A program made the translations under genes and the position numbers. Positions 24,701 to 55,814 of a stretch of 64,000 nucleotides of DNA are shown here, one piece after another. Source of the stretch: Methanobacteriota archaeon (GTDB lineage: Archaea > Thermoplasmatota > E2 > DHVEG-1). The stretch lies in contig CAVYNH010000001.1 of NCBI GenBank assembly GCA_963769885.1, forward strand, positions 4,071 to 68,070. The letters are read 5' to 3'. The notes beneath the pieces were generated by a model. The model was given only the letters and a program-made list of their open reading frames with translations, made no database searches and was not told the DNA's origin. Numbering within the stretch: the first letter of the stretch is position 1; the number at the start of each line of letters is the position of its first letter.

Positions 24701-25301
24701 TGACGGTGCCGTTGAGGGTGCCGTGGGTCTCGTTGCCGGTGGTGGGGAGGGTGGGGTCGATGGCGGCGACGACGGCGGTGTCGGCGTAGGCCCAGTCGGC
24801 GAGGGCGAGTTGGCTGGCGATGGTGGCGGGGTCGGTGCTGGTGATGGTGGTGAGGGTGTGGGTGTTCCAGTCGGGGTTGAGGCTGTCTTGTGGGACGTTG
24901 ATGGCGGTGAGGGTGTCGAGTTGGCCGTCGCAGTAGGCCATCCAGTCTTGCATGAAGTAGTCGATGCCTTGGCGGGTGTTGAGGAAGCGGTCGTCGAGGC
25001 TGGTGCCGGGGTGTGGGTCTTCGTAGAAGAGGAGGGGGTTGGTGTAGATGGTTTTGGTGGTTTTGTCGTAGAAGACGGCGGTGGGGACGGCGGCGAGGTA
25101 GGCGTAGTCGTCGATGAGGCTGTGTTCTTGTTGGGCGACGAAGGTGACTTTTTTAAGGGGGACGTAGGGCTGCCAGGTGACGCCGCGGGTGGAGGGTTGG
25201 GTGGTGTTGGCGGCGGTGGTGAGGGGGGCGGCGGTGGTGAGGAGGCAGAGGATGGTGGTGATAAGGAGTAAACTGTGGGTGACGGGCTTGTGGTGTGGCA
25301 T
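21708..25301 (-). CDS. large secreted surface protein, C-terminal TM anchor (function unknown)
   Basis: 1197 aa with an N-terminal signal-like segment and the C-terminal anchor ..VLAIIGIIAVLVIVIIAVVLRRRKR. N-x-S/T sequons are frequent. Confidence 0.8.
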   Translation of the reverse strand: MPHHKPVTHSLLLITTILCLLTTAAPLTTAANTTQPSTRGVTWQPYVPLKKVTFVAQQEHSLIDDYAYLAAVPTAVFYDKTTKTIYTNPLLFYEDPHPGTSLDDRFLNTRQGIDYFMQDWMAYCDGQLDTLTAINVPQDSLNPDWNTHTLTTITSTDPATIASQLALADWAYADTAVVAAIDPTLPTTGNETHGTLNGTVTTQRGTLTQHFEVPQTNEIYPIYNEFTVPDGYKMLYIRSWYPSVYINIGRGGFQGIINMSIPAGDRDLQVYCEKDGQWMMAGIVAAWNAMEGMDKDYVSTYVYNPGKWSVALTDAPTKTLSDQTPTNFQNTPIEKTRNLLFLHFGRYGRLLEVLQNLHKVTYQIDVNMYPGTTLTIPDLPPYGCQDATITLHWNDPSVDLGFSLIGPSGEEILSTREAGVSTTCPTPEGACAIPLPDGTSTDMHLTGLGECLPGEHYSLCVYTETPLTSDTPFTIDYSWKQNMTRSYGDSLDSAANAAVLASLLNAPLLYTSTASTPKTTTSTLATLGTTHLYVVDLHNTMKSTTKTTLTDGITDTHYLTTFNDINTTIRSLSGQNDVIFSTVNYWTMDNATFHPGAPIEGEIAVGPAAYIAAQHGSPVLIVENHPQFSSAVIYHNELWRRHSDGISKEPAVAEMYLTGTRVYSYLKQLDYDKQGDEILITVGGQYNIGFSWDRMFVGKAEPGRFFGSPTDLSVWLAKTVFYPQIVFQNPGIKNPDGVTLTNGSISKRQFPWRGKLGLKIIRPSGDVTLHYPALNTLICYEEKFNSRASNYWGFTYKCADGDIPGQTASFNPIDSGDMLAVNGQTGAYLPDMSAAEVQTFYLDQGGYSPVYSTNFDANMNNLNQGILLWLINTHGGPRDGGVLMFWDPTGQNPDAKKTFPFAAETKEVNPWRGYEWLMGSTTEPDTMTMQVHGLIATMLGNPDPRIGFIKTGLDLALAKHPLRDILGNIASLPILRLITPKWFQDTQDYYDGIVISLLATRMGTAYYNGSNVDDSLGNIHSVSISSVACLPAGKYLHISLMRHGSVVQIMDPWATSWYSGVWQNSVPRGIALGMTMGQIYEAGIKKVGIQYISDPPVWWWDLEENVCLYGDPNLRTWVPGTTFSTLNHWEPGDVEPLIYAPQEGFSVAGHAPFGASDHPNVRQQASFFSQTMVLAIIGIIAVLVIVIIAVVLRRRKR

Positions 25302-38525: not shown

Positions 38526-39914
38526 TCATTGACCGCAAGTTCTGCAGCTCAGGTGGGGTACGAGCTGCACGTCATTAATTGAAAATAAAAACAATTTTGC
38601 TGTTGCGATAAATGGTGGGCAATCATCGATAACAATAGTCATTGTGATTTTACCTATCCCAAGAACAAAACCATTTATACTTTCGGTTGCGTACGGTAAA
38701 AAGTTGGGTATCATGCCACTCTTATGTGCTCCAAGAAGTATAAGTCCACCAGTTATTGTGACACTCCACGGTACGTTAGTTAAAGTTTTATTGCAAATGT
38801 TATAGAAATAAATATGATACCCGGGGCCTCCTGTTATGTTGACATAGAAACAGCATTCGCCGCAGACAGGAGTGTCTTCTATGATGGGCGCTGAAGAATT
38901 CTCATCGCTCGTTGCAAATGCCATATTATGGATTATGGTTCCATTCGCGGTTTCTGGACGGACAAGAACTAGCAGCCAGACGCATTTGGTTGAGTTCGCT
39001 ATGATTGTACCGATATCCCAACGGACCGTACGGCTGCTAATGTTATAGCCTGGCGAGGCGTCTATGAAACCCGTTTCATTCGGGAGCTGATCGGTGATAA
39101 TAACATTATGTTGGGTAGATGCATGTGCGGATGTGCAAATTGTGTAATTAATGTACTCGCACTGCCATACGCAATCGGTTTCGTTGAGGTTGTCAGTCTT
39201 TGTAATTATTAAGTGTGAGCCGCAATCGATGTATGCTTCGATTAGCCAGTTGCGATCCCAAAGACTACCGTAACTCTGTAATTCAATCCAGCCTGAGCCT
39301 GAACCGTCATTATACCAGTCGCCCTTCCCATCCACGGCCGGTCCTGAATCGAACCCTATTGGGATTTCATCGGGATCCTGGACCATCTCCACTGATATCC
39401 ATAAGTCTTCCGTGCAGTTAAATGGTACCGGCGTCGAAAGGGTTACTACAAACCAGCCTGAATCATTAACGAAATAGGGCTGTGAACAGAGGAGCTGGCC
39501 TGGTGTAGTAGGAGTTCCCTGCCTATATATTTTGATGTTTCCATGAAGATAATTTGCATCCCAGTGATAGAACTGAACAGCGGTGAGCCGACAGCCGCAA
39601 TACGGCGCGAGTTCAGTAGGGGTTAACCGTATCGCTGCTTCCCATGTAGCCCCGCCTGATATTTTAAATCCAACCCATTTGTTTGTATAGTAGTAATAGA
39701 GCCATCCTCCATTACAAATCGCGCAGGGTGTGCCTACTTCATGGTTTGTCTGTTGATGTGTAGCATCGTGAGTGTTTGTATCGAGTAGAAATGGCGCTGT
39801 ATTTTCTGACTTTTTAATATCTGCCGTCACCATAAGTGATGATAAGATCAGGAGCAACGCAATCATTACAATACCAGCATCTTTCAAAATAGTTTTTCCA
39901 CCAATAGATTTCAT
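38526..39914 (-). CDS. secreted protein (hypothetical; DUF11-like repeat in C-terminal half)
   Basis: 462 aa with an N-terminal signal/TM segment. It lies in a low-GC island. Confidence 0.65.
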   Translation of the reverse strand: MKSIGGKTILKDAGIVMIALLLILSSLMVTADIKKSENTAPFLLDTNTHDATHQQTNHEVGTPCAICNGGWLYYYYTNKWVGFKISGGATWEAAIRLTPTELAPYCGCRLTAVQFYHWDANYLHGNIKIYRQGTPTTPGQLLCSQPYFVNDSGWFVVTLSTPVPFNCTEDLWISVEMVQDPDEIPIGFDSGPAVDGKGDWYNDGSGSGWIELQSYGSLWDRNWLIEAYIDCGSHLIITKTDNLNETDCVWQCEYINYTICTSAHASTQHNVIITDQLPNETGFIDASPGYNISSRTVRWDIGTIIANSTKCVWLLVLVRPETANGTIIHNMAFATSDENSSAPIIEDTPVCGECCFYVNITGGPGYHIYFYNICNKTLTNVPWSVTITGGLILLGAHKSGMIPNFLPYATESINGFVLGIGKITMTIVIDDCPPFIATAKLFLFSINDVQLVPHLSCRTCGQ

Positions 39915-41059: not shown

Positions 41060-41655
41060 AGAAATCCCCATGCTTTAGCGTGGGGATGAATCGCGTCATT
41101 TTTCTTCAAAAATTCGTTACCACGTACTGGGTGGACGCGCCCGCAGTCGCGGGCGCTCTGAAGCACCTGCCCAGGACATCTTGTATGGAACTTATTAGCA
41201 GTAGCCATAGCGTAGGCCAGAATATATACCATTTGGAATGGTGCCCGAAATACCGCTACCACATGATGCGACGGGAGGAAATCCAAAAACTAATCGAGAA
41301 TGTGGTGCGTGATGTAGCAGCACGGCATCACATCACCGTCATCGAACTCAGTGTGATGCCGGACCACATCCACCTGGTTGCCGGCCTCCCGGCGACCATG
41401 AGCGTCTCCTCCGCCCTCCACCTCCTCAAAGGAGCCTCCTCCCATGAGATCTTCCTACGGATTCCCGCCTTCCGAATGCGGTACCCCCGGGGAGCCTTCT
41501 GGAGCCCCGGGAAATTCTTCCGCACCATTGGCGACGCCAATACAGAAACCGTGATCAACTACGTCAGAAACCATCGATTCCAACAAGCCACCCTTGACGG
41601 GTTTCCGGGGACAGCCTAACCCCCGGAAGCCCCGGCATTTATGCCGGGGAGGATG
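41060..41655 (+). mobile_element. IS200-type (IS200/IS605 family, TnpA-only) element
   Basis: The Y1 transposase gene is flanked by hairpins TCCCCATGC-TTTA-GCGTGGGGA (41065-41086) and CCCCGGCA-TTTA-TGCCGGGG (41630-41649). An additional hairpin GCGCCCGC-AGTC-GCGGGCGC lies in the leader. The boundaries are approximate. Confidence 0.65.
41185..41619 (+). CDS. tnpA: IS200/IS605 family transposase TnpA (Y1 HUH)
   Basis: Contains ..YHLEWCPKYRYHMM.. and ..MPDHIHLV.. (HUH). It is about 144 aa from the internal ATG. Confidence 0.8.
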   Translation: MELISSSHSVGQNIYHLEWCPKYRYHMMRREEIQKLIENVVRDVAARHHITVIELSVMPDHIHLVAGLPATMSVSSALHLLKGASSHEIFLRIPAFRMRYPRGAFWSPGKFFRTIGDANTETVINYVRNHRFQQATLDGFPGTA

Positions 41656-42181: not shown

Positions 42182-42428
42182 GATGTTGGTGTCAGGGCGA
42201 GGCTCTTGGTCTGACTTCTTCGTTAAAATAGGGGATTCTGCAGATATGTTTTTAAAGAAGTAAAACCAGGTTCTGAATCCCTTCTGTCATGTATTTTTAT
42301 CTTTTACAGACATTTATATCAAGCTACAGGATAACAAATGGCAAGGAGGAACAGGTTCTTATACAGAATAGCTGGTTAAAGTAAATCCTGTTTTGGTAAT
42401 TTTAGAAAATAGAAGGAGGAAAAAAGAA

Positions 42429-43616
42429 ATGAAAACGAAAATCATAGGAATATGTGTAGGTATGCTGATGTTCGCCACTGTTCTTTCAGTGGCAGCGCCG
42501 ATAAATAAAAATGTCACGGAAGTTACACCCGTTACGTCTCCGTTCGCTGGAAACACAGGAGCTCCTTCGGTGTCACCGCTTTCTCAGATAAGTACGTTAC
42601 TTGGGAAAACTGTGTACGGATCCAAGGTATACCCTCCTTATCCATGTAAGGAGCTTGTTTCGTTCACCTTGGATAACCCTGGCACCATCAACAATATTAC
42701 TAATGCGACCTCGAAATATTTCCTTTCTGGTGGCTGTTGGGCGAATGGCGTCTGGTGGGGCTGCGAATATTCAGGGTGGTCAGATAATAACTCTAAGATA
42801 TGGAAGATCAACCCCACAACTGGGAAAATGACTCTAGTCGGTCCCTCTAATACCCACGATGATGAGAGTCTGCAAGGGCTAGCGTATGATGACACAACTG
42901 GCACCATGTATGCTTGTAGTCCCATTAACCTCTATACTATCGATATGCTCACAGGTAACGCAACACGGGTGGGTTCCTATCTGGGACATGTTATGATAGG
43001 TATTGCATGTGATTCCAAAGGGAACCTGTATGGGGAAGAAGTAGGGAACCCGGGGTCTCTCTATGCTATCAACAAAACGACTGCACATATCAGTTTAATT
43101 GGTCATTTCGGCTTCTATCTCAACCATTGTCAAGATATGGCATTTGATAAAGATAATGATAAATTATACCTCGCAGCTTTAACTCAGAATGGAACAGAAA
43201 ATGAAGGTGCGTTGTACTACTGTGATCAAAACACGGCAGCATGCACAAAGATCGGTATTTTTGGAACCAACCTCACTGAGATTGACGGGTTTGCTATACC
43301 CTATACATCTGATGTTGAAATAAATGGATTGAAAGGTGGAATCGGCGTACACGCGACCATAAAGAATACTGGTACGGTCAATCTCAGTAGCGTGAAATGG
43401 AGTATTGTCTTAGAAAAAGGTCTCATCATTCTGGGCAAGAAAAGTAACGGGACAATACCCTCCCTCTCTGTTGGTCAATCCGTAGATATCAAAACAGGCT
43501 TAATCCTTGGATTCGGAATGCCGAGGGTTATGATTAAGGTCGAAACTCCTGATCATTTTATAGAGAAAACTGCGAAAGCGACGGTATTGTCATTCTTCGT
43601 CCTTGGGGTAAAGTAA
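42429..43616 (+). CDS. secreted beta-propeller-like protein (hypothetical)
   Basis: The signal peptide is MKTKIIGICVGMLMFATVLSVAAP. The motif L[YW].I[ND]..TG....[LIV]G recurs (IWKINPTTGKMTLVG, LYTIDMLTGNATRVG, LYAINKTTAHISLIG). Confidence 0.6.
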   Translation: MKTKIIGICVGMLMFATVLSVAAPINKNVTEVTPVTSPFAGNTGAPSVSPLSQISTLLGKTVYGSKVYPPYPCKELVSFTLDNPGTINNITNATSKYFLSGGCWANGVWWGCEYSGWSDNNSKIWKINPTTGKMTLVGPSNTHDDESLQGLAYDDTTGTMYACSPINLYTIDMLTGNATRVGSYLGHVMIGIACDSKGNLYGEEVGNPGSLYAINKTTAHISLIGHFGFYLNHCQDMAFDKDNDKLYLAALTQNGTENEGALYYCDQNTAACTKIGIFGTNLTEIDGFAIPYTSDVEINGLKGGIGVHATIKNTGTVNLSSVKWSIVLEKGLIILGKKSNGTIPSLSVGQSVDIKTGLILGFGMPRVMIKVETPDHFIEKTAKATVLSFFVLGVK

Positions 43617-43901: not shown

Positions 43902-44222
43902 ATGGGGGCCTACGGCCTCTTTATTGCGGGGGAAAAGAATATTTTCAACAATCGGCGGTCAGAAATCGATATTATGCAGGAGATTTTGACGCTGACGCAG
44001 AACAGTGCCCGAAAGACGCAGATCCTTTACCAGGTGAACCTGAGCTACACACTACTGAAGAATTATCTCATGTTCCTTATAAGCAATGACTTCATCCGTG
44101 AGGTGACGGTCGATAACGATCATAATCCCTATTCGGCCTACCAGCTAACTGAAAAGGGTCATCTTTTTATGAAGGATATTAAAAAAGTGCAGTCTCATTT
44201 GAACGGAAAATTTTTTTGGTAA
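43902..44222 (+). CDS. small winged-helix transcription regulator (putative)
   Basis: ..ILYQVNLSYTLLKNYLMFLISNDFIREV...YQLTEKGHLFMKDI is a wHTH pattern. It lies directly upstream of the TasA-like genes. Confidence 0.55.
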   Translation: MGAYGLFIAGEKNIFNNRRSEIDIMQEILTLTQNSARKTQILYQVNLSYTLLKNYLMFLISNDFIREVTVDNDHNPYSAYQLTEKGHLFMKDIKKVQSHLNGKFFW

Positions 44223-44448
44223 CTTTTTTCTCACACCCGCAAAAACAACGGGAGAGATAGAACATTGTTCTAGAACAATGCTTCTGCTCTTCTTATAACC
44301 CCGAGGGTATTTATTTTTTGTAGGCGAATGATAGCAGGAACGTGGTGTTCCGTTTTCGTTCGTATATCTGGGGGAGACACTCGGCTTTGCACTCCGCCTT
44401 GCATAAGAAATCAAAGCAGAAGTAACTGAAAAGGAGGAAAAGGTAACC

Positions 44449-45648
44449 TTGAAAAAGAACAAGATCGGCGTAATGTTTCTAGTGTCAGTCCTAGCGCTAT
44501 CTGGGATCGGGATCTCTTATGCGGCATTCACAGACACCATCACCGTCCACGGTACAGTCCAGTGCGCATCCGTGCAATTCAACATACAAGACTTTTCGGG
44601 CACCTGGGTCTACAAGGTCTACGGCGGGACAAGCCCACCGCAGCATGAGATCTATGTGGACTATGAGCACCTGACTTCGGCGGAGCTTGCCACGATGTTT
44701 CCGGGCAGTACGATAGTGTTGGTGTCGTCAGCGACCGGAGCCGCCGGGCCGAGCCCCTACGATGCGACGTTCACCTTCGACAAGCTGTTCCCCTGCATCC
44801 AATTCAAAGCAGATGTGAAAACGACGATTGGGACGATTCCGGTGAAGATCCAGGCCATCACCCTGACGCCGCTCAACGGCGCTGAATGGATACGGCCGTT
44901 GATCAGCAACAACGAGATTAGGGTAGAGCTGAAGATGTTGCGGAATGGCCAGTGGAGTACAGTCGGCGTCGGCGCGCAGGTACACCCAACCGATATCATC
45001 GAGATCATCGTATGGGTGCATATCCCCCAGAACAACGCGTACCAGGGGTTAACGGGCTCGCTGCAGGTCACCGTCAGCGTCCAGCAGTGGAACGACCTGT
45101 GCGGTCAGACCACCGGACCAAAAGAGTTGAATCTCCCGACGGGGACAATAAACGCAGTCTACTACCATTACGGACCCTCTAGCTACTGGCAGACGGTCCT
45201 CAGCAACGTCGGGACCGGGTATACCGTCCATGATGGGTCCTACATCGGCTGGTGCAACGACGAAGACACGTACATCGTCCCAGGCAACTTGTACAACGTA
45301 AGGCTGTTTTCAAGCTATGACCAATCGTTCTTCTTGGCTCATCCCAACTGGAACGGGAATTATTGGTATAGCTGGCCATGCGTCAACTACCTCATAAACC
45401 ACAAGATACCAGTGACGAGTCAGCTGCAGAAGGATCAGATCCAGTTCGCGATCTGGTATTTCATCGACCACGGCTACACCGGCACTGATCCTATCGTCTG
45501 GGGCATGATCAACGCTGCGCTCGCCAACGGGAAGTACTTCGTCCCGCAGACCGGTCAAAATATGGCCGTGCTCGTCGTTGGATATCCCTTCGATGGAGTG
45601 CAGCATGGATACGTAGTTCAGCACACCTTCATCGAAGTCGACCCATAA
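44449..45648 (+). CDS. TasA/camelysin-like secreted protein with thioester-domain (TQXA)-like C-terminal domain
   Basis: The N-terminus MKKNKIGVMFLVSVLALSGIGISYAAFTDT resembles the SipW-type signal (compare B. subtilis TasA ..GGGTWAAFND). The C-terminal half has ..YIGWCNDED.., ..VNYLINHKIP.. and ..DQIQFAIWYFIDHGYTG. Confidence 0.7.
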   Translation: MKKNKIGVMFLVSVLALSGIGISYAAFTDTITVHGTVQCASVQFNIQDFSGTWVYKVYGGTSPPQHEIYVDYEHLTSAELATMFPGSTIVLVSSATGAAGPSPYDATFTFDKLFPCIQFKADVKTTIGTIPVKIQAITLTPLNGAEWIRPLISNNEIRVELKMLRNGQWSTVGVGAQVHPTDIIEIIVWVHIPQNNAYQGLTGSLQVTVSVQQWNDLCGQTTGPKELNLPTGTINAVYYHYGPSSYWQTVLSNVGTGYTVHDGSYIGWCNDEDTYIVPGNLYNVRLFSSYDQSFFLAHPNWNGNYWYSWPCVNYLINHKIPVTSQLQKDQIQFAIWYFIDHGYTGTDPIVWGMINAALANGKYFVPQTGQNMAVLVVGYPFDGVQHGYVVQHTFIEVDP

Positions 45649-45774
45649 ATAAATAAGAATACCTGAGTCCGGGGGTCCCGGACTTGGCAGTTCAAACGGC
45701 GGAGACGCTCAGCCTTGAACTCCGCCTGAAAAAAGAAATCAGGGCAGAGAAACCATAAAGGAGGAAAAAAAGAC

Positions 45775-46446
45775 ATGAAAAACAAACTCGGCGTGATATT
45801 CGCCGTATCTGTAATGGCGCTAGCTGGTATCGGCATTAGCTACGCAGGGTTCACGGACACCATAACCGTGCATGGAAGCGTAACGACCGCGACTGTGACC
45901 CATACTATTGGTTCCACCTTCTCTGGGACATGGGTCTACAAAGTCTATGGAACGGGAGCACCCACCCATGAAATCTACGTTGACCACACAGGCCTTGGGA
46001 TAACAGAAGTTCAGCGACTTTATCCTACTGCCATTGTTCTAGGCCCGATTGCGAGTGCGACAGCCGCACCCGGGACAGGCTATGATGTTGAACTCACATG
46101 GACCAACATCTTCCCCTGCATCGACTTCTGCTGTGACTTCGACTTCACGTACACCGGAACCATACCCGTGAAAGTAAACAGCATGACGATGACCTATGAC
46201 CCTAACCCCGGTGGAACGCCATCTGGCTGGATCGATCAGTACCTGACCTATACATTAACTACGGGTACTGGCACAACACCGGTTCCGATAGGTCTTGGCT
46301 CCCAGCTCCATCCTGGTGATGTAGTGCACTGTGTATTCTGCATCCACTTGCCGCAACTCGACAGTTTGCAGGGCAAGTGCGCCGTTGGACATGCATCACT
46401 GCAACTAGTCCAGTGGAACGAGTTCCCATACACGCCAATACCATAA
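45775..46446 (+). CDS. TasA/camelysin-like secreted protein (short paralogue)
   Basis: The N-terminus MKNKLGVIFAVSVMALAGIGISYAGFTDTITVHG is nearly identical to that of 44449..45648. The shared core includes ..SGTWVYKVYG..HEIYVD.. and ..FPCI.F..D...TIGTIPVK. Confidence 0.7.
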   Translation: MKNKLGVIFAVSVMALAGIGISYAGFTDTITVHGSVTTATVTHTIGSTFSGTWVYKVYGTGAPTHEIYVDHTGLGITEVQRLYPTAIVLGPIASATAAPGTGYDVELTWTNIFPCIDFCCDFDFTYTGTIPVKVNSMTMTYDPNPGGTPSGWIDQYLTYTLTTGTGTTPVPIGLGSQLHPGDVVHCVFCIHLPQLDSLQGKCAVGHASLQLVQWNEFPYTPIP

Positions 46447-46637
46447 ATAAGTGATAGAACCGACCACAAACCCCTAACCACATGAGCTGGATTGGGAGAA
46501 ACCAACCCCCCAATTCATCTCTCATTTCTTTTTTTATATTCAACTATTTCAAGACCGCGTTTCATGGCGTTCTTCCATAATGCCATATTTCATACCAACA
46601 GTTATAAGCATTTATATAAAACATATAAGATAACGAG

Positions 46638-49600
46638 ATGGAAGGAGTCATAGTGAGACGATGGACTAACAAGGGAAGTGGTACACAGAAAACGACATCC
46701 AGCCTTCTGCATACCATCCCGGTCATCCTCCTCCTTCTCAGTACCACCGCGGCTCCTGCGATAGCCGGACCTTCCCACACGACCGGCTCAGGCGCATCGC
46801 TGAGCTACACCTTCTCCTTCAGGACCCCGACCCTCACCGAAATCCAGCTCGACAACCGGACGTTCACCAAAATCGAGATGGACGAATGCCTCGCCTCATC
46901 GCAGCCCGGCCTCCCGGCGCTGCCGGTCTTCCCCGCCCACCTGCTCCTCCCCCCGGGAGCAACCGTCACGAGCATCCATACCCCAACACAGGGCACCATC
47001 GACCTTCACCTGGACACCCCGGTCCTCCCAGCGCAAGAACTCGTCCACCCCGGTACAGACGAGATCCCCGCCTTCGTCATGAACACGAGCGCCTACGCCT
47101 CACCAACCCCGGTATCCGACACCATCTATGAAAACCAGGGAATCGGCTACTGCCGCGGATACACCATCCTCACCCTCACCATTCATCCCGTCCGGTACAT
47201 CCCGAAAACCGGCTCCTTATCCTACTACCCAGAACTCACCCTCACCATAGACCTCCAGCAGCCCGACGCTACACGGCTCGGGAAAGCCACCACGTTCCTC
47301 CGAGACAACACGGCAGACCAAGCAGCGATCCGCGGCCTGGTCGACAACCCCTCACTCCTGACAGCCTACAACCCGACCATCGACGCCCCCCTCGGGGATG
47401 ACCCGCTACGGACCGACGGCCTGTGCAGCGCCTCCGGACACTACCCCTACGTCATCATCACCAGCAACAGCCTCAAGAGCACGACCGGCTACCCCTACAA
47501 CTGGACCAGCCTCATCACCCACCGCGAGACCCACGACGGCCTCAACGGCACCATCGTCACCGTCCAAGACATCGACGCCTGCCACGCCTACTGGAACACC
47601 ACCGCACTCTACAACGACAGCCAAGCCCACATCAGGGAATTCTGCAAAGACGCCTACCAGAACTGGGAGACCGACTACATCCTCCTCGGCGGCGACTGGG
47701 ACAGCGCCCCCAGCGACCAGATCGTCCCCTACCGACTCTTCACCGACCGCTATCTCCCTGGTGACCTCTATCAAACCATGGCCTGCGACATGTACTACAG
47801 CCACCTCGACGGTACCTGGTGGGACGCCACAGACAACGTCTGGGGCGGCAGCGCAGGAAGCGGCGCCAACAACCTCTACGCAGAACTGTACATCGGCCGC
47901 ATCGCCGCCTACAACGCCTCCATGGTCTCCAACGCGGTCCAAAAGATCATCTGGTATGATCTGAGCGCCTCCGGCGACTGGCTCCATCAAGCAGTCTTCG
48001 CCGGCGGCAACCTCGGCTGGAGCGCCACCTCCAAACAATACATGGAGGAACTCAGGCTCGGCACCGACACCTACCGCACCTTCACGGGCTTCCAAGAATG
48101 GAACACCGCCCACCCAGCCTCCACCATTGACTTCGAAACATACTATCATGCCGACCTCGGAAGTAACTACCCAGAGTATTTCTCAGACTCCATCGAGGAC
48201 GACAACGCCTCGATCATCAACCACCTTGACCACAGCGACTGGAACAGCCCCTTCGGCCTCACCTGGTGGTCCGACCGCATCAACGCCAAACCCTTCTTCG
48301 GCTACTCCCAAGGATGCCTCGCCGGCCGCTTCCACGAAGGCTACGCCGGCTCCGAACAACTGCAGTGCCGCTTCGCCGGACGCAACGCCTTCGCCCTCAT
48401 CCTCAACACCGGCTACGGCTACGGTAGCTACTACGACACGGACGGCGCAAGCCAAGCCCTCGAGTGCTACTTCTGGGACTACTTCTTCAACAACCAATCC
48501 GCTCACACCGAAAACTGGCAGCTCGGCAGAGCCCAGGCCTACTCCGAGGACAAGATGAGCACGTACATCGACAGCTACAGCCACGCCTGGTGTTACGCCT
48601 GGTACAGTAGCCACCTCTTCGGCGACCCAGCTCAGACCCTCCGGCTCTCAGACACGCCACAAGAAAACATCCACCTCGCCAGCGAATCCCCGACCAATGG
48701 ATCCACCACAGTCCCGATTACAACAACATCGCTCAGCGTCCAGATCACGCATGCACTCGGACACACGTTCAACTATACAATTCAGACAAGCCCCAACATC
48801 GGAAGCGCCTCAGGAACAGGCGTCCACAACGGGACCAAATCCTGCACGATCACTGGCCTGAGTTACGCAACAACCTACCAATGGACCGTCAGGGTCACTG
48901 ACGGAGAATCATGGGTGAACGAGACGTACACCTTTACCACCCAGAACGCGCCAATCAATCATCCCCCCACGTTGACTAGCCCCAGTCCTACCAATGGCGC
49001 GACCGGCGTCTCGATCAGCACCTCGTCCCTGAGCATCACCATCCAAGACCAGGATGGAGACCATTTCAACTGGACCATCACGACAGCACCCAACATCGGC
49101 AGCAGCGCGGGAACCTCATCGACGAATGGAACCAAGACATGCGCAGTATCAGGCCTGGCCTACTCAACCGCGTACACCTGGACCGTGCGGGCGAACGATG
49201 GGCATCAATGGACGAACACCTCGTACACCTTCACCACGCAAAGCGCGCCAGTCAACAACCCGCCAGCCCTATCCAACCCCAGCCCAGGGAACGGCTCCAC
49301 AAGCATCCCGATTAGCACCACCTCGCTGAGCATCACGATCGGAGACCCTGAAGGGGATCCATTCAATTGGACCATCACCACGACACCAAATATCGGGAGC
49401 GGCTCAGGAACCCTTGCAGGCAACGAGAGCAAGTCTTGCAGCGTCTCCGGCTTGGCTTATTCAACCCTCTATACATGGACCGCGAGAGCCTATGACGGGC
49501 ATCACTGGACGAACGCAACCTACACCTTCACGACACAGAGCGCACCGATCAACAACCCCCCCACCTTGACCAATCCCAGCCCAGCGAATGCTTCTACGAC

Positions 49601-51200
49601 CGTACCAATAACCACCACGACTCTCAGCATCAAAATCCAAGACCCCGAGGGAGACTCGTTCAACTGGACCATGACAACGACGCCGGACATCGGCAGCAGC
49701 TCAGGTACATCCGCAAGCAACGGCACCAAATCCTGCAGCGTCTCCGGCTTGACGTATTCAACCACGTATAATTGGACCGCCAAGGCCTACGACGGGCATC
49801 ACTGGACGAACGCAACCTACACCTTCACGACACAGAACGCGCCCGTCAACAATCCACCCACCCTCACCAGCCCAACACCCGCCAACGGCTCAACCACCGT
49901 ATCAGTCTCGACAGCATCCCTCACCATCCTCATCCGGGACCCCGAGGCAGACCCGTTCAACTGGACCATGACAACGACGCCGAACATCGGCAGCAGCTCT
50001 GGAACCTCCGCAAGCAACGGCACCAAAACCTGTCCGATTTCCGGCCTCGCCTACTCTACTGTCTATTCATGGACCGCGCACGCCTACGACGGCCACCACT
50101 GGACCAACGCGACTTACACCTTCACGACTCAAAACGTGACCGTCAATTCCCCTCCCGTCGTCTCCAGCCCCAGCCCTGCAAACGGATCCAGCGATCTGTC
50201 CACCCAATCGACGACGCTGCACATCACGATCCGAGACCAGGAAGGAGACGACTTCAACTGGACGATCACCACCATTCCTAACATCGGCAGCAGCTCAGGC
50301 ACCGCCTCCGTAAACGGCACCAAGAACTGCACCGTCACACACCTTGCCTTTTCGACCACCTACACCTGGGTTGTCCGAGCCACTGACGGACACGGGTGGA
50401 CCAACAAGACGTACCACTTCTCCACCCAGGCTCAGCAAGGCGGCGGCAACCCCCCGCAAGGCGGGGAGCCTCCAGGCAACGGTGGCGCGACAGAGAACCA
50501 TCCCCCGCAGACACCCGCGCGACCCCGCGGCACAGTCCTCCTTGAGATCGGCGTCGGCTCCACGTTCACCAGCTCAGTAGTCGACCAGGACGGCGACAGC
50601 CTCCGCTACCGCTTCGACTGGGGAGACGGGACGATCAGTGACTGGAGCGCATGGCAAGCGCCGAACACCACGATCTCCATGGAACATCACTGGACGACGA
50701 ACGGCACTTACCTGGTCCGAGTCCTCGCGCAAGACGAACCTGGAGAGAACAGCAGCTGGTCCCCCACCCTCACCGTGACGGTCACCGCAGCCGCTGAGAC
50801 AGTTTCCCACCCCGAAGGGCAGATCGAGATCCCCTCGGTCATCCCAGCAAACAAAGGCGTCGTCTTCAACGCCTCAGGATGGACGAACCTCACCGGGGAT
50901 GCCCTCACCTACACCTGGGACTTCGGGGATGGAACCACCGGCACCGGGATGACCATCACCCATGTCTACGCGAAGCCCGGGAACTACACCGTCACCCTCA
51001 CCGTCACGAACAGCAGCGGCCACCGCCAGACCAAGACCGTCGCCATCACGGTCACCAGCTCCACCACCGCCCTCGCTCAAACCTCCCGAGCACCCCTCCT
51101 CAGCCCCCTCCCACTCCTCCTGATAGTAGTCACCATACTCCTCTTCGTCGCCATCGTCATCTGGCTCGTGAAACGATATCTAAAACCTCGGAAAACCTAA
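46638..51200 (+). CDS. giant surface protein: C25-like peptidase domain, six ~99-aa Ig/Fn3-like repeats, PKD-like and PKD modules, C-terminal TM anchor
   Basis: 1520 aa. YPYVIITSNSL.. is C25-like, with the His/Cys dyad HLDHSDW..(28 aa)..SQGCLAG. Six repeats run from about 48680 to 50430. It also has DQDGDSLRYRFDWGDG.. and ..YTWDFGDGTTG..Y.VTLTV. The anchor is LLLIVVTILLFVAIVIWLVKRYLKPRKT. GTG at 46653 after GGAAGGAG is an alternative start. Confidence 0.85.
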   Translation: MEGVIVRRWTNKGSGTQKTTSSLLHTIPVILLLLSTTAAPAIAGPSHTTGSGASLSYTFSFRTPTLTEIQLDNRTFTKIEMDECLASSQPGLPALPVFPAHLLLPPGATVTSIHTPTQGTIDLHLDTPVLPAQELVHPGTDEIPAFVMNTSAYASPTPVSDTIYENQGIGYCRGYTILTLTIHPVRYIPKTGSLSYYPELTLTIDLQQPDATRLGKATTFLRDNTADQAAIRGLVDNPSLLTAYNPTIDAPLGDDPLRTDGLCSASGHYPYVIITSNSLKSTTGYPYNWTSLITHRETHDGLNGTIVTVQDIDACHAYWNTTALYNDSQAHIREFCKDAYQNWETDYILLGGDWDSAPSDQIVPYRLFTDRYLPGDLYQTMACDMYYSHLDGTWWDATDNVWGGSAGSGANNLYAELYIGRIAAYNASMVSNAVQKIIWYDLSASGDWLHQAVFAGGNLGWSATSKQYMEELRLGTDTYRTFTGFQEWNTAHPASTIDFETYYHADLGSNYPEYFSDSIEDDNASIINHLDHSDWNSPFGLTWWSDRINAKPFFGYSQGCLAGRFHEGYAGSEQLQCRFAGRNAFALILNTGYGYGSYYDTDGASQALECYFWDYFFNNQSAHTENWQLGRAQAYSEDKMSTYIDSYSHAWCYAWYSSHLFGDPAQTLRLSDTPQENIHLASESPTNGSTTVPITTTSLSVQITHALGHTFNYTIQTSPNIGSASGTGVHNGTKSCTITGLSYATTYQWTVRVTDGESWVNETYTFTTQNAPINHPPTLTSPSPTNGATGVSISTSSLSITIQDQDGDHFNWTITTAPNIGSSAGTSSTNGTKTCAVSGLAYSTAYTWTVRANDGHQWTNTSYTFTTQSAPVNNPPALSNPSPGNGSTSIPISTTSLSITIGDPEGDPFNWTITTTPNIGSGSGTLAGNESKSCSVSGLAYSTLYTWTARAYDGHHWTNATYTFTTQSAPINNPPTLTNPSPANASTTVPITTTTLSIKIQDPEGDSFNWTMTTTPDIGSSSGTSASNGTKSCSVSGLTYSTTYNWTAKAYDGHHWTNATYTFTTQNAPVNNPPTLTSPTPANGSTTVSVSTASLTILIRDPEADPFNWTMTTTPNIGSSSGTSASNGTKTCPISGLAYSTVYSWTAHAYDGHHWTNATYTFTTQNVTVNSPPVVSSPSPANGSSDLSTQSTTLHITIRDQEGDDFNWTITTIPNIGSSSGTASVNGTKNCTVTHLAFSTTYTWVVRATDGHGWTNKTYHFSTQAQQGGGNPPQGGEPPGNGGATENHPPQTPARPRGTVLLEIGVGSTFTSSVVDQDGDSLRYRFDWGDGTISDWSAWQAPNTTISMEHHWTTNGTYLVRVLAQDEPGENSSWSPTLTVTVTAAAETVSHPEGQIEIPSVIPANKGVVFNASGWTNLTGDALTYTWDFGDGTTGTGMTITHVYAKPGNYTVTLTVTNSSGHRQTKTVAITVTSSTTALAQTSRAPLLSPLPLLLIVVTILLFVAIVIWLVKRYLKPRKT

Positions 51201-51353
51201 GAAAAACGCCTCCTTTTATTAAGATTAATAAATAAAAAACAGGAGACCACGCCTTTCTCTCGAAGGAATCGGAGAAAAAAACAGGTGAAAACGACGCCAC
51301 CCTCCCAAAGATAATTTTTTATATACAAGAATCATAGTAACAGACTTGAAGCT

Positions 51354-52538
51354 ATGTGGTACCTCATCCTTGGACTTCTCGGGCTCCTCTACCTGGCATC
51401 CAACACCATCCTCCCTAGCCAAGGCACCATCGGCACCTACCTCCTCCAACCCCTCCTCTGGATAGGCCTCGCCATCCTCACCTTACTCGTCGCCAAAAAC
51501 GAAGACCTCAACATCCTCAAGTTCAAACGTGTCTCCCACTGGTACTTCGGCAACTCACCCCTCCAGGCCGGCCTCCTCATCGGCGGCCTCCAAGTCACCC
51601 TCCTCATCCTCGTCGGCGTCTTCACCGGCTTCGGAAAAAGCCCCAACAGCTTCACCCCCACCCCCCTCATCCTCAACCTCGTCTTCGTCGCCTCCCTCCT
51701 CACCGGCACCGAGATCACCCGCGCCTACCTCATAAAACGCGGCACGCAAACCCGCAGGCACACCACCCTCGTCCTCATCGCCGCCACCGTCATCTACGCC
51801 GCCTTCCAACTCACCATCACCCAGATCCTCACCCTCACCACAAACACCCCCATCATCCTCCTCGAATTCCTCGGAAAAACCGTCATCACCGCCATCGCCA
51901 TCAACCTCCTCGCCTCCTACCTCTCCTACATGGGCGGCGCCACCGCCTCCCTCAGCTACATCGGCATCCTCACCGCCTTCGACTGGTTCTCCCCAATCCT
52001 CCCCAACCCCCACTGGACCATCCTCGCCCTCATCGGCACCATCATCCCCGCCATCGGCTACTCCCTCATCCAAAACTCCATCCGAGAACCAGGCATCAAA
52101 AAACACCGGAAACCACACCGAACCACCGCCGACGGCTATGGCTGGACCGCCGTCACCGTCTTCAGCGTCCTCATCGTCTTCTTCTCCTTCGGATACCTCG
52201 GCGTCAAACCCACCGTCATCTACAGCGGCAGCATGCAACCAGAACTCCAAGTCGGCGACCTCGCCATCATCCAAAAAACCGACCCCGCCACCCTCAAAAA
52301 TGGAGACATCATCCAATTCAACAACGACAACATGACCCTTATCCACCGCGTCATCAACATCACCTCACAACAAGGCCAGACACTTTATACCACCAAAGGC
52401 GATGCCAATAAAGACCCCGACATCCCCCCCATTAAAGAAGACCAAATCATCGGCAAATCCATCTTCACCATCCCCAAGATAGGATGGATACAAATCCTCG
52501 TCAAAGACCTCGCCAGAAAAGCAGGCATCAAAGTCTAA
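51354..52538 (+). CDS. signal peptidase I (archaeal/ER, SipW type) fused to an N-terminal ~270-aa polytopic membrane domain
   Basis: The C-terminal part has ..VIYSGSMQPELQVGDLAII.., ..TLIHRVI.. and ..TKGDANKDPD.. (the S26B Ser/His/Asp boxes). The N-terminal part has about eight hydrophobic helices. Confidence 0.8.
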   Translation: MWYLILGLLGLLYLASNTILPSQGTIGTYLLQPLLWIGLAILTLLVAKNEDLNILKFKRVSHWYFGNSPLQAGLLIGGLQVTLLILVGVFTGFGKSPNSFTPTPLILNLVFVASLLTGTEITRAYLIKRGTQTRRHTTLVLIAATVIYAAFQLTITQILTLTTNTPIILLEFLGKTVITAIAINLLASYLSYMGGATASLSYIGILTAFDWFSPILPNPHWTILALIGTIIPAIGYSLIQNSIREPGIKKHRKPHRTTADGYGWTAVTVFSVLIVFFSFGYLGVKPTVIYSGSMQPELQVGDLAIIQKTDPATLKNGDIIQFNNDNMTLIHRVINITSQQGQTLYTTKGDANKDPDIPPIKEDQIIGKSIFTIPKIGWIQILVKDLARKAGIKV

Positions 52539-52555
52539 AAAAAAGAGAATGCACC

Positions 52556-53806
52556 ATGAGTAGAGCCAAAAACAGAAAAGCCAGGACCCTCCCCAGAAAA
52601 ACCATCCCACGGACACCGCGGTACATCATCATTGCCGTAATCAGTGTCATCCTCATCTACGCCCTCACCAGCACCTACCTCGCCTACCAAACACCCACGA
52701 CACAACGACAGACCCAAACCATCGTCCATTACTCAAACAACGGCCGCTTCACCTACCTCATCTACCTCCACAACAACACTATCTACAATAAAACCGTCCT
52801 CTACCCAGAAGAAGGCATCATCTTCACCCAACTCCTGGACCACATCAACGCCACGTTCACCTACACCTACGAAATCAACACCACCTCATCCATCAGCGGC
52901 AACTGCAGCATCCTAGGCATCATCCAAACCAACCTGTGGAGCAAAACCTTTTCCCTCCGCCCCCAAACCCCCTTCAGCGCCATGGGACAGTACGCCACCG
53001 CGACCGTGGACTTCCCCATCGACTACGCGTACTTCGAACAAGTCTTAGAAGAAATCAATACAGAGACCGGCGTCCCGGCCCAAAACCCCGTCCTCATCAT
53101 CCAAAGCCATGTGACTATCACCGCGCATACAAACCAAGGGGCCGTCTTCACATCCTTCTTCCCCGCCTTCAACCTGACCCTCGGACAGCGAACCATCGAT
53201 GTTTCAAAGAATCTGATCTCCAGCGACCCGGGATCATTAACAAAAACAATAACGATAGAGACCCCTAATATCCAATCCCAGAGAAACAACTGGTCCATCA
53301 TCAGCATTATCACCCTCCTCGGGCTGGCCTCAGTTGTACTATTCACCGCGAGTCCTGTCGAAACAAAAACAAATACAGTGACCGAGGTCAAAAAAATCAA
53401 GAAGAAATATAACGAGTGGATTGTCGAAGCAGACGAACATCCGGATGCTGCGGAAGCCCGCATCGTTTCCATTAAGTCAATCCAGGATCTCGCTAAAATC
53501 GGAGAGGAACTCGGGAAGCCCATCATCCATTATTCCCCAAAAAACGAGAACGACAAGAACAATACCTTCTATGTCATCGATGAAACAGTCTTTTATGAAT
53601 ACGTGCTCAAGCCAGCGGAGAGCAGCAAAAAAAGCACCACCTGCCCACAATGTGGGGCAACCATCGACTATGAGGAAAATGCAGGACGAAAAGTAACCTT
53701 ACGATGCCCGAACTGTGGAAGTAAGGCAGTCGCTGACGTATCTGAGGAAAAACCCTGGTCAAATCTGTTAGCTCGAATAAAAAAACGAAGACTCAATGGC
53801 AAATAA
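52556..53806 (+). CDS. 2-TM protein with extracytoplasmic domain and C-terminal zinc ribbon (hypothetical)
   Basis: The start was reassigned to MSRAKNRK.. TM1 is YIIIAVISVILIYAL and TM2 is WSIISIITLLGLASVVLFTA. The C-terminus has CPQCG...CPNCG. Confidence 0.7.
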   Translation: MSRAKNRKARTLPRKTIPRTPRYIIIAVISVILIYALTSTYLAYQTPTTQRQTQTIVHYSNNGRFTYLIYLHNNTIYNKTVLYPEEGIIFTQLLDHINATFTYTYEINTTSSISGNCSILGIIQTNLWSKTFSLRPQTPFSAMGQYATATVDFPIDYAYFEQVLEEINTETGVPAQNPVLIIQSHVTITAHTNQGAVFTSFFPAFNLTLGQRTIDVSKNLISSDPGSLTKTITIETPNIQSQRNNWSIISIITLLGLASVVLFTASPVETKTNTVTEVKKIKKKYNEWIVEADEHPDAAEARIVSIKSIQDLAKIGEELGKPIIHYSPKNENDKNNTFYVIDETVFYEYVLKPAESSKKSTTCPQCGATIDYEENAGRKVTLRCPNCGSKAVADVSEEKPWSNLLARIKKRRLNGK

Positions 53807-54554: not shown

Positions 54555-55814
54555 TTATGGGGTGTTTACGATGAGGAGGAACCCGAGGAGGAGGCCGGTG
54601 GTGGTGACGGTCTGTTTGCCGGCGTTCTTCGCGGTGGTGTGGACTTGGATTTGGACTTTGCCAAGGGCGAGGAGCGGGATCCGCTGCGTCTCGGCCTGTC
54701 CTGGCGTCAGGGTGTCGATGGTGTCGGAGAAGCTGAGGTTGATGTCGTTTTTCCGGCCGCCGGTGATCGTGATCGTCCATTTCAGCTGCGTCAGGTTCGT
54801 TGTGGCTGGGTTGTAGAGTCGGACGCGTAGGCCGAGGGGTCCGCCGTGGATTTCGATGCCGGTTTTCGGGGGGTAGACGACGTAGGCGGCGGCATAGCCG
54901 ACCTTGCAGCAGCCGTATTCGATGTACATGAAGCCGTTCTCGCCCCAGTAGGGTCCCCAGGAGTTTTTCAGGATCCAGCAGCCGTGCTCGCCGAGGGTGT
55001 CGTCCCAGCCGACCAGGGTGACCGCATGGTTGATGTTCGCGGGGGAATTGTTGTTGAAGACTCCGCCGGTGTAGGCGCCGAAGGCTTCGTTGACGGCGAC
55101 GCCGCTGGAGACGGGCCCGTAGGTGTAGATTGCGTTCTTTATTGCCTCGGTGCTGGGCACTCCTTGGTTGACGCCGACGTATTTCCATGAGTCGAGGTGG
55201 TACGGGTGATGGTAGGGGCCGTCGCAGGGTGCGTCCTCGGCGACGTACGGGAAGCCCTGTTCAAGGACCGCGCCTGAGCCGTCGAATGTGTCAGTACGCC
55301 ATTGGTGGTAGTCGTGGGCGTACCAGCCGCCGTTGCATCCCCAGTGGTTCTGGTTGCAGCTGACGAGCCATTGTTCGGAGAGGTCGACTTCGACGTGGTC
55401 GTGGATGAGGATCGCGCTTTCCATGGGTCCGACGGTGCCGAAGGCCCAGCAGCTGCCGCAGCCGTCTTGGTCCTTGACGCTGGAGACGCCGTTGTGGTCC
55501 CGCCAGTCCCATCGGTCCGGGAGGGTGGTGGTGGGCAGGCAGGGGTCGAAGCTGGCGTTGACCCACCAGTCTGCTGGCTCGACGAGTCCGCAGAGCTGTG
55601 AGAATGGGCGCTGGGTCGCGGGGTTCTCTCCGACCGTGAACGTCCAGCCGTTTTCTGTTGCGTGTTGCTGCATGGTGGCGATGTCTGCGGGGGTCAGCCA
55701 GGGCGTGGTGCCGGTCGTCGTGAGGGAGTCAAGCGTGCATCCGCAGGAGCCGAGGACGGTTGGTGTGATGAGGGTAAGGAGGCATAACAGGCAGGGTATC
55801 CAGGGGGTTTTCAT
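54555..55814 (-). CDS. secreted papain-family (C1A) cysteine peptidase
   Basis: It has a signal peptide. Catalytic motifs are ..DQDGCGSCWAFGTVG.. and ..NHAVTLVGWDD..WILKNSWGPYWGENGF. Confidence 0.9.
   Translation of the reverse strand: MKTPWIPCLLCLLTLITPTVLGSCGCTLDSLTTTGTTPWLTPADIATMQQHATENGWTFTVGENPATQRPFSQLCGLVEPADWWVNASFDPCLPTTTLPDRWDWRDHNGVSSVKDQDGCGSCWAFGTVGPMESAILIHDHVEVDLSEQWLVSCNQNHWGCNGGWYAHDYHQWRTDTFDGSGAVLEQGFPYVAEDAPCDGPYHHPYHLDSWKYVGVNQGVPSTEAIKNAIYTYGPVSSGVAVNEAFGAYTGGVFNNNSPANINHAVTLVGWDDTLGEHGCWILKNSWGPYWGENGFMYIEYGCCKVGYAAAYVVYPPKTGIEIHGGPLGLRVRLYNPATTNLTQLKWTITITGGRKNDINLSFSDTIDTLTPGQAETQRIPLLALGKVQIQVHTTAKNAGKQTVTTTGLLLGFLLIVNTP

Follow-up and report, generated by a model that had tools for sequence, protein, structure and literature searches.

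We analyzed 64,000 nucleotides of a Methanobacteriota archaeon (GTDB lineage Archaea; Thermoplasmatota; E2; DHVEG-1) from contig CAVYNH010000001.1 of assembly GCA_963769885.1, positions 4,071 to 68,070 of the forward strand. This whole stretch is referred to as the window. It contains six tightly spaced open reading frames (ORFs) on the plus strand, labeled A to F, that fill positions 43902 to 53806. The locus probably encodes a surface fiber of the AbpX/TasA superfamily along with its own processing machinery, judging from sequence comparisons and structural models. What the analysis shows is the gene content with its homologies and motifs, the conservation of its synteny, and the folds predicted for its proteins. 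From these we infer cleavage of the subunits by the peptidase E, their polymerization, a thioester bond in subunit B, and any role of the large protease D.

Genes B and C encode the candidate fiber subunits. B (44449..45648, +) is a secreted protein of 399 amino acids with a signal peptide at residues 1-25. C (45775..46446, +) is a bare pilin-domain protein of 223 amino acids with a signal peptide at residues 1-24. The two are paralogs with 44% identity over about 220 amino acids (E 1e-49). B consists of a C-like part extended at the C terminus by about 180 residues; its signal peptide is followed by a donor-strand-like segment (about residues 26-42) and a pilin beta-sandwich (about 43-214). 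Both signals end in ...LA(L/G)(S/A)GIGISYA and are followed by (A/G)FTDTITVHG. Cleavage is predicted between SYA and AFTDT in B and between SYA and GFTDT in C.

The pilin family has 55 database relatives, all metagenomic, and no Pfam model recognizes it. None of the 55 has a Pfam domain over the pilin region, and two show a C-terminal LTD match only. Every match in a genome was to an uncultured Thermoplasmatales or Thermoplasmatota metagenome-assembled genome (MAG). In an alignment of 42 sequences, the best-conserved stretch was the end of the signal and the first ~20 mature residues. Its consensus is LALAGIGISYA before the cleavage site and GFTDTI.V.GTV.TATV after it, and Y23, A24, and D28 are invariant or nearly so. 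[quoted passage not shown] Mature C starts with G-F-T-D and mature B with A-F-T-D, both of which follow the donor-strand rule. The family has a median pI of 4.05 and 15.3% Asp plus Glu. The model for SipW-dependent signals, TIGR04088, scored 15.7 bits in B, below its cutoff of 19, and matched 15 of the 42 family members (E up to 1). The TasA model matched 3 of the 42. One relative carries the Joint Genome Institute name [quoted passage not shown] which we rejected because these are folded proteins of 200 to 700 amino acids.

Three solved structures were matched when the family profile was compared with PDB sequences. The top match, MtrE (E 0.0016), was spurious because it aligned solely to the signal-peptide/low-complexity region. 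The others were AbpX (9sj2_C; E 0.031) and TasA (5of1; E 0.95), and the TasA alignment spans a common C-terminal motif, QG.S....F.FEATQWN. A phmmer search of PDB sequences with B gave no match. A partial AbpX sequence matched pilin ORFs located beside homologs of E, for example, ORF L037_2_667 at 2.7e-8, and this ORF also matched C at 2e-9, both E-values being relative to a small local collection of 4156 ORFs. An iterated jackhmmer search reached the family of the window.

The predicted folds point weakly the same way. The AlphaFold2 (AF2) model of C has a predicted local distance difference test (pLDDT) score of 87.7 and is an all-beta sandwich. Its N-terminal mature segment (residues 22-42) is unpaired and unstructured in this monomer model. 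The model of B has a pLDDT of 82.4. In a Foldseek search of the PDB with C, the TasA fiber 8aur_A ranked second (probability 0.99, E 9e-3, template modeling [TM] score 0.38), and the Sulfolobus 0406 thread ranked fourth. The earlier note on this DNA, made from the sequence alone, had read the locus as TasA-like. That reading is supported by the AbpX link through intermediates, the donor-strand signature, and the weak TasA fold match; the evidence from profiles and folds points to TasA/AbpX, though weakly. From these comparisons and models we conclude that B and C probably belong to the TasA superfamily, nearest the AbpX branch, as a divergent Thermoplasmatota subfamily.

Two related proteins, P0059 and P0060, have a SipW-type signal, an N-terminal strand (W-S-D/E-T/N...), and a domain resembling the thioester domain (TED) of bacterial adhesins, but lack the pilin sandwich. 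This architecture makes sense mainly if the N-terminal strand is a donor strand. Such proteins could donate but not accept a strand, so they would have to occupy the end of a fiber. A gene of the same strand-plus-TED-like kind was seen in another locus (L099, 10001-10711), about 8 kb from an E/F pair and adjoining a GH10 glycosidase.

E (51354..52538, +) encodes a signal peptidase I (SPase I) of 394 amino acids. It has a polytopic N-terminal domain (about residues 1-262) and an ER/SipW-type S26 domain (about 265-385), and it scores 97.6 bits on TIGR02228 (cutoff 51.85). It contains the motifs SGSMQP (Ser293), HRV (His331), and GDAN (Asp350), of which SGSM, HR, and GDAN are nearly invariant in 61 relatives. 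Its best solved relatives are SEC11A/C at 1e-19. Against the Bacillus SipW equivalog model NF046067, it scored 78.9 bits and did not reach the cutoff of 190. By its sequence, E is SipW-like in type and not a SipW ortholog. Ahead of the catalytic domain, seven segments stand out clearly by hydropathy and more by eye, for 8 or 9 hydrophobic segments in all; E agrees with an AbpX-type SPase I of about ten transmembrane helices. The family of the N-terminal domain contains 511 representatives at 50% clustering, almost all of about 390 to 440 amino acids, and most of the 60 members scanned carry the S26 domain. E120 and R123 are invariant in it. It has no Pfam model and no sequence match in the PDB. 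We considered an archaeosortase/exosortase or a CPBP protease and rejected both, as there is no conserved Cys and no EExxxR, FxxxH, or HxxxN motif. Named homologs of E are from Thermoplasmata or Thermoplasmatota MAGs. The polytopic domain is 60% identical between loci whose pilins are 35 to 40% identical.

F (listed as 52484..53806, +) encodes a DUF5305 (TafG-like) accessory protein that scores 110.3 bits on PF17231 (cutoff 29). The listed start runs 55 nucleotides into E, and the ATG at 52553, just past the stop codon of E, is more likely the true start. Two transmembrane segments of F (residues 48-66 and 271-289) flank an extracellular domain and are followed by a cytoplasmic C-terminal domain and, at the very end, a zinc ribbon. 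The ribbon (CxxC...CxxC; CPQC...CPNC, 53639-53731) lies at the cytoplasmic end. It is absent from all 14 homologs checked and appears to be a lineage-specific addition. A (43902..44222, +) encodes a small winged-helix protein of 106 amino acids with matches to HTH_45 (72.2 bits) and the Sso10a family (67.1 bits). It is probably the transcription factor of the cluster. Homologs of A lie directly upstream of pilin genes in eight other loci (L009, L015, L025, L037, L094, L101, L102, and L103).

The earlier note had described much of this gene content, and its descriptions hold up. It had listed two adjacent paralogs with near-identical signals ending in GIGISYA(A/G)FTDT, assigned to the SipW/TasA type, with a small winged helix-turn-helix regulator ahead of them. 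It had also listed a SipW-type peptidase with the three motifs given above, fused to a polytopic domain; a membrane-anchored C25/Fn3/PKD protein of 1,520 amino acids; and a following zinc-ribbon protein with two transmembrane segments. The DUF5305 identity of this last protein was missing from it.

The gene set is conserved in related genomes. Among about 40 metagenome loci with full-length homologs of E, F directly follows E in more than 20, genes recognized by the pilin hidden Markov model lie alongside in about 18, and a winged helix-turn-helix gene is present in several. The earlier note had named a lack of co-occurrence in related genomes as a refuting result, and the genes do co-occur. 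Locus L101, where E is 70% identical, contains the full six-gene set in the order regulator, pilin, pilin plus TED, pilin, C25 (1,531 amino acids), E, and F. L102 contains all but the TED-bearing subunit, with C25, E, and F adjacent, and these three are also adjacent in L104. The closest relatives (L094 to L096; C 68% identical) contain the regulator, 399- and 218-residue proteins, and C25 in the order of the window. L009 and L103, also from Thermoplasmatota, contain the regulator, a pilin, E, F, and a TED-like protein. In L001 and L002, seven pilin-domain paralogs precede E and F, and some of them bear VWA, PKD, or TED-like modules. The C25 giant lies just upstream of the array in L001, and the sequence of L002 starts inside its array. 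Four loci (L001, L003, L006, and L008) have arrays of 3 to 7 pilin-domain paralogs with varied C-terminal modules, namely, VWA with CLIPPER, SdrD_B, PKD, Laminin_G_3, LTD, Glug, and TED-like modules. These arrays suggest that tip and minor subunits form a modular repertoire.

A DDE transposase is inserted between the regulator and the pilin gene in L102. The window contains an ORF of 179 amino acids (41080-41619, +) with ...PDHIHLV... that by eye resembles an IS200/IS605-type Y1 transposase. Together they suggest mobile-element activity around such clusters.

D (46638..51200, +) encodes a C25/Fn3/PKD surface protein of 1,520 amino acids. It has a signal peptide, a Propeptide_C25 domain (46.8 bits) and a Peptidase_C25 domain (111.5 bits), both scoring above the Pfam cutoffs, about seven Fn3-like repeats, two PKD domains, and a C-terminal transmembrane anchor. 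The propeptide matches the prodomain of Kgp at 2.7e-9. His532 (LDHSD) and Cys560 (SQGCLAG) are conserved in the orthologs and are, by inspection, candidate catalytic residues. A C25 gene lies immediately before the peptidase gene in at least four Thermoplasmatota loci, and it is a clade-specific yet recurrent member of the cluster. Most simply, D would be a surface protease that works beside the fiber. A role in fiber processing, by likeness to the C25-type sortase PorU, is speculative.

Whether D is a functional part of the fiber system is about an even question. D may instead stand outside it, as one of many extracellular peptidases of a protein-degrading archaeon that is merely syntenic in one clade, and we rate this only slightly below even. 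D lacks both the strand and a signal in which SYA is followed by xFTD, and the window contains a second C25 gene (35596-38103) and a C1 peptidase (54555-55814). The C25 gene is also absent from L009 and L103, which are of similar divergence, and from all of the about 40 metagenome loci with more distant homologs of E, most of them on short contigs. Extracellular enzymes reported for sedimentary Thermoplasmatota include C25 peptidases, described as common there, and other cysteine peptidases (PMC6461988), which makes a simple co-location of attachment and digestion plausible. The synteny argues the other way. Orthologs of D (790 to 1400 bits) lie inside the same cluster in five loci. In three of these (L101, L102, and L104), the ortholog is immediately upstream of E and F and the flanking genes differ; in L094, it follows the pilins, and in L001, it is upstream of the pilin array.

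The part of the genome around the locus is dense in secreted surface proteins and peptidases. The second C25 gene (35596-38103, +), in the region 6 to 10 kb upstream, encodes an 835-residue protein with Propeptide_C25, Peptidase_C25, and PKD domains. The same region encodes a DUF11/CLIPPER-domain protein (38526-39914, -). A DUF4394/DUF6923-like secreted protein (42393-43616, +) and the C1 papain-like peptidase (54555-55814, -) have a common C-terminal domain of about 100 amino acids (28% identity, E 6e-7) with a hydrophobic tail at its end. An ORF in L102 (960-2960, -) matches both proteins. The common domain may be a surface-sorting or anchoring domain.

The C-terminal module of B (residues 219-399; 45103..45645, +) resembles a TED. 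The earlier note had spoken of a thioester-like tip subunit, and this is borne out by a structural match and by three motifs. TEDs have been defined by a Cys in [YFL]C-hydrophobic-hydrophilic on a beta-strand, TQxx(hydrophobic)W on a central helix, and, as a third and weak motif, (hydrophobic)Q(hydrophilic)(hydrophobic)(hydrophobic) on a C-terminal strand, whose Gln forms the bond (Walden et al.; PMC4450167). They were found exclusively in Gram-positive bacteria (PMC4450167). By sequence, B carries all three motifs. The first is GWCND, with W-C269-N-D at the end of strand 263-269 (family consensus W-C-V-D); the second is I-Q332-F-A-I-W336 within helix 325-340; and the third is V-Q391-H-T-F just before the last strand (393-397). 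The W, C, Q, A, I, W, and C-terminal Q are invariant across 12 relatives. In Foldseek, the best meaningful match of B was the Clostridium perfringens TED (CpTIE-TED; 5a0d_B), with probability 1.00, a TM score of 0.54 on the target, 189 aligned columns, and E 7e-3. Three chains of 5a0d were among the top five matches. A word-indexed search with the C-terminal domain of B returned five relatives, none with a Pfam annotation, and no archaeal TED turned up in a literature search on the subject. For this domain we rejected a hydrolase of the papain or transglutaminase type, since the Cys is at a strand end and not at a helix N terminus and there is no invariant His.

Judging from the motifs and the fold match, it is fairly likely that this domain forms a thioester. 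An unlikely, though not negligible, alternative is a domain that is TED-like in fold and forms no thioester, serving as a noncovalent binding domain or a cysteine-dependent enzyme. It draws on several facts. B itself has no match to the Pfam TED model (PF08341), which appeared below threshold in 2 of the 12 relatives (best 0.018); it is still the sole family matched by more than one of them. The profile of the domain matched no solved TED in the PDB, the Foldseek E-value is just 7e-3, and the residue before the Cys is Trp, where the published motif has Tyr, Phe, or Leu. Against it, none of the 12 relatives differs at Cys269, Gln332/Trp336, or Gln391, whereas a second Cys (C311) is not invariant. 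The positions of the invariant residues, on a strand, on the central helix, and on the C-terminal strand, are those expected of class I TEDs, and the Cys-Gln spacing is 122 residues in B versus 129 in CpTIE.

Several results weigh against the fiber reading as a whole. In a scan at E up to 10, B and C had no match above cutoff to a Pfam or NCBIfam model, and only the subthreshold TIGR04088 match appeared. The Peptidase_M73/TasA model was not detected in either protein. None of the Foldseek matches of C had an E-value as low as 1e-3, and the TM score to TasA is only 0.38. An hhalign comparison of the family profile with an approximate TasA sequence gave 13% probability, over the C-terminal motif only, and is a lead and not evidence. 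The set used for the AbpX-link E-values was small, as stated above. B and C of the window are less acidic than their family (pI 4.85 and 5.19; 7% Asp plus Glu), so calcium-dependent assembly as in AbpX may not apply here. No cell-anchoring component was identified.

It is nevertheless improbable that B and C are non-polymerizing secreted or surface proteins (monomeric adhesins or envelope components) whose common specialized signal is served by a dedicated peptidase, with no fiber formed. In favor of this, direct fold and profile similarity to TasA-family fibers is weak, many family members carry large adhesin-like C-terminal modules that could act alone, and some family genes are far from any E/F pair (L004, L011, and L097). 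Against it, conservation within the family peaks in the first ~20 mature residues, which carry the AbpX donor-strand signature, the AF2 model leaves this segment unpaired, P0059 and P0060 retain just the strand and the adhesin domain, and the multi-paralog arrays with one short bare member resemble sets of major and minor pilins.

In the fiber reading, B and C would be exported by the Sec pathway. E, working with F, would cut after ...SYA and expose the N-terminal strand (A/G)-F-T-D-T-I-T-V. This strand would insert into the beta-sandwich of the next subunit by donor-strand complementation, and the subunits would polymerize. C, as the bare pilin domain, is likely the major subunit. B may be a minor or tip subunit, whose thioester-type adhesin could attach the fiber covalently to a target. 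A would regulate the cluster. D would be a clade-specific companion, a gingipain-like protease with a long Fn3/PKD stalk that is anchored in the membrane.

The earlier note did not recognize this combination of genes. Apart from the TED-like domain and the C25 gene, the set has in fact been described in the preprint on abpX loci, and a related set is known from tafi loci. These were reported in 2025 and 2026, and the core of the locus is therefore of an already described kind. The abpX loci are said there to encode tip proteins of varied structure alongside major and minor subunits, together with an SPase I of ten transmembrane helices, DUF5305, and occasional transcription factors; the DUF5305 protein has two transmembrane segments with extracellular and cytoplasmic domains (bioRxiv 10.64898/2026.01.04.697558). 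The locus in the window is like them in its Sec signal followed by a donor strand, major and minor/tip subunits, polytopic SPase I, DUF5305 protein, regulator, and acidic protein family. Its pilins are only remotely similar to Pyrococcus abyssi AbpX (profile E 0.03; linked through intermediates). Its subunits are less acidic than the family, and F carries an extra zinc ribbon. In the available part of the preprint, Thermoplasmatota are not among the lineages listed, and neither a TED-like tip module nor a co-located C25 giant is described.

The haloarchaeal tafi system and its Sec-type relatives with DUF1102 pilins also have pilins, a dedicated peptidase, DUF5305, a regulator, and variable adhesin-like proteins (PMC11821415, PMC12337348). 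There, the peptidase TafD is required for pilin processing, and deletion of tafD abolishes both processing and fibers; TafG is the DUF5305 protein and TafB the regulator (PMC11821415, PMC12337348). The signals of B and C (MKKNKIG... and MKNKLG...) are of the Sec type, with no twin arginine, and neither B nor C showed similarity to DUF1102 or TafE. TafD has an N-terminal peptidase, four transmembrane helices, and a C-terminal Ig-like domain, whereas E is reversed, with its polytopic domain first.

The tapA-sipW-tasA operon of Bacillus subtilis also has an ER-type peptidase beside its substrates, which start with A-F-x-D once cleaved and have a C-terminal QG...QWN. TasA fibers of B. subtilis assemble by donor-strand exchange, and the same assembly is proposed here. 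The window locus differs in having no Peptidase_M73 match and no TapA homolog, and B. subtilis SipW lacks the polytopic N-terminal domain and has no DUF5305 partner. The interpretation given in the earlier note is right in kind. The operon for the archaeal bundling pili (ABP) of Pyrobaculum is a poorer parallel because it contains no dedicated peptidase.

The modules of B and D have their own counterparts. Gram-positive TED adhesins (Cpa pilus tip, SfbI, and CpTIE) are like B in predicted fold, in the three motif positions, and in a likely location at the fiber end (PMC4450167, PMC6194298). In contrast to them, B comes from an archaeal host and carries the domain C-terminally on a donor-strand pilin, not N-terminally on a sortase-anchored LPXTG protein. 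It has no isopeptide stalk domains, has Trp before the Cys, and is not recognized by the Pfam model. The gingipains Kgp and Rgp are like D in having Propeptide_C25 and Peptidase_C25 with candidate His/Cys residues, followed by Ig-like domains. D differs in its anchoring by a C-terminal transmembrane helix, not the C-terminal domain of the type IX secretion system, and in its seven Fn3-like repeats and two PKD domains. Five features set the locus apart from the described ones: its lineage, pilins that are very divergent, the TED-like module, the C25 giant, and the zinc ribbon of F. The TED-like domain and the C25 gene next to the peptidase are the two additions that look new.

A far-reaching reading would join these parts in one Thermoplasmatota clade, and we give it a small chance. 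A donor-strand fiber with a genuine thioester "harpoon" subunit would act as a unit with D, either as a covalent tether to proteinaceous particles that the protease digests or with the protease processing or releasing the fiber. The conserved polytopic domain, with its invariant E120 and R123, would also supply the membrane platform that is missing for the assembly of these chaperone-free fibers. If true, a TED would for the first time be known beyond Gram-positive bacteria, and likewise for the first time on a TasA-type fiber.

Elsewhere in the window are genes for a thermosome and a topoisomerase VI B subunit. The window also encodes an N6/N4 DNA methylase fused to an Mrr-type restriction endonuclease domain (13042-14484, +). 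Two paralogs in divergent orientation (3318-5639, -, and 5685-7067, +) have DUF7948 and SBBP beta-propeller repeats, with additional PKD domains in one of them. An ORF of 1,197 amino acids (21708-25301, -) in a high-GC stretch had no Pfam match at E up to 1e-4. The GC content ranges from 0.30 to 0.60 across 2-kb windows of the whole stretch, and the high GC gives many long spurious ORFs in other frames. The long genes have a strong strand-specific skew; at the locus, the GC skew is about -0.27 to -0.33 and the AT skew about +0.16 to +0.28.

TasA-superfamily fibers are emerging as a matrix and adhesion system common to bacteria and archaea. The locus would add uncultured Thermoplasmatota, which are reportedly abundant in sediments, to their range. 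The polytopic domain of E is a defined target for asking how such fibers assemble without a chaperone or usher. If a thioester does form in the TED-like domain of B, covalent adhesion chemistry reaches beyond Gram-positive bacteria, and here it would be joined to a donor-strand fiber and not to a sortase pilus. In archaea thought to mineralize detrital protein, the recurrent arrangement of C25, SPase, and DUF5305 genes is a testable candidate for connecting attachment with the breakdown of protein outside the cell.

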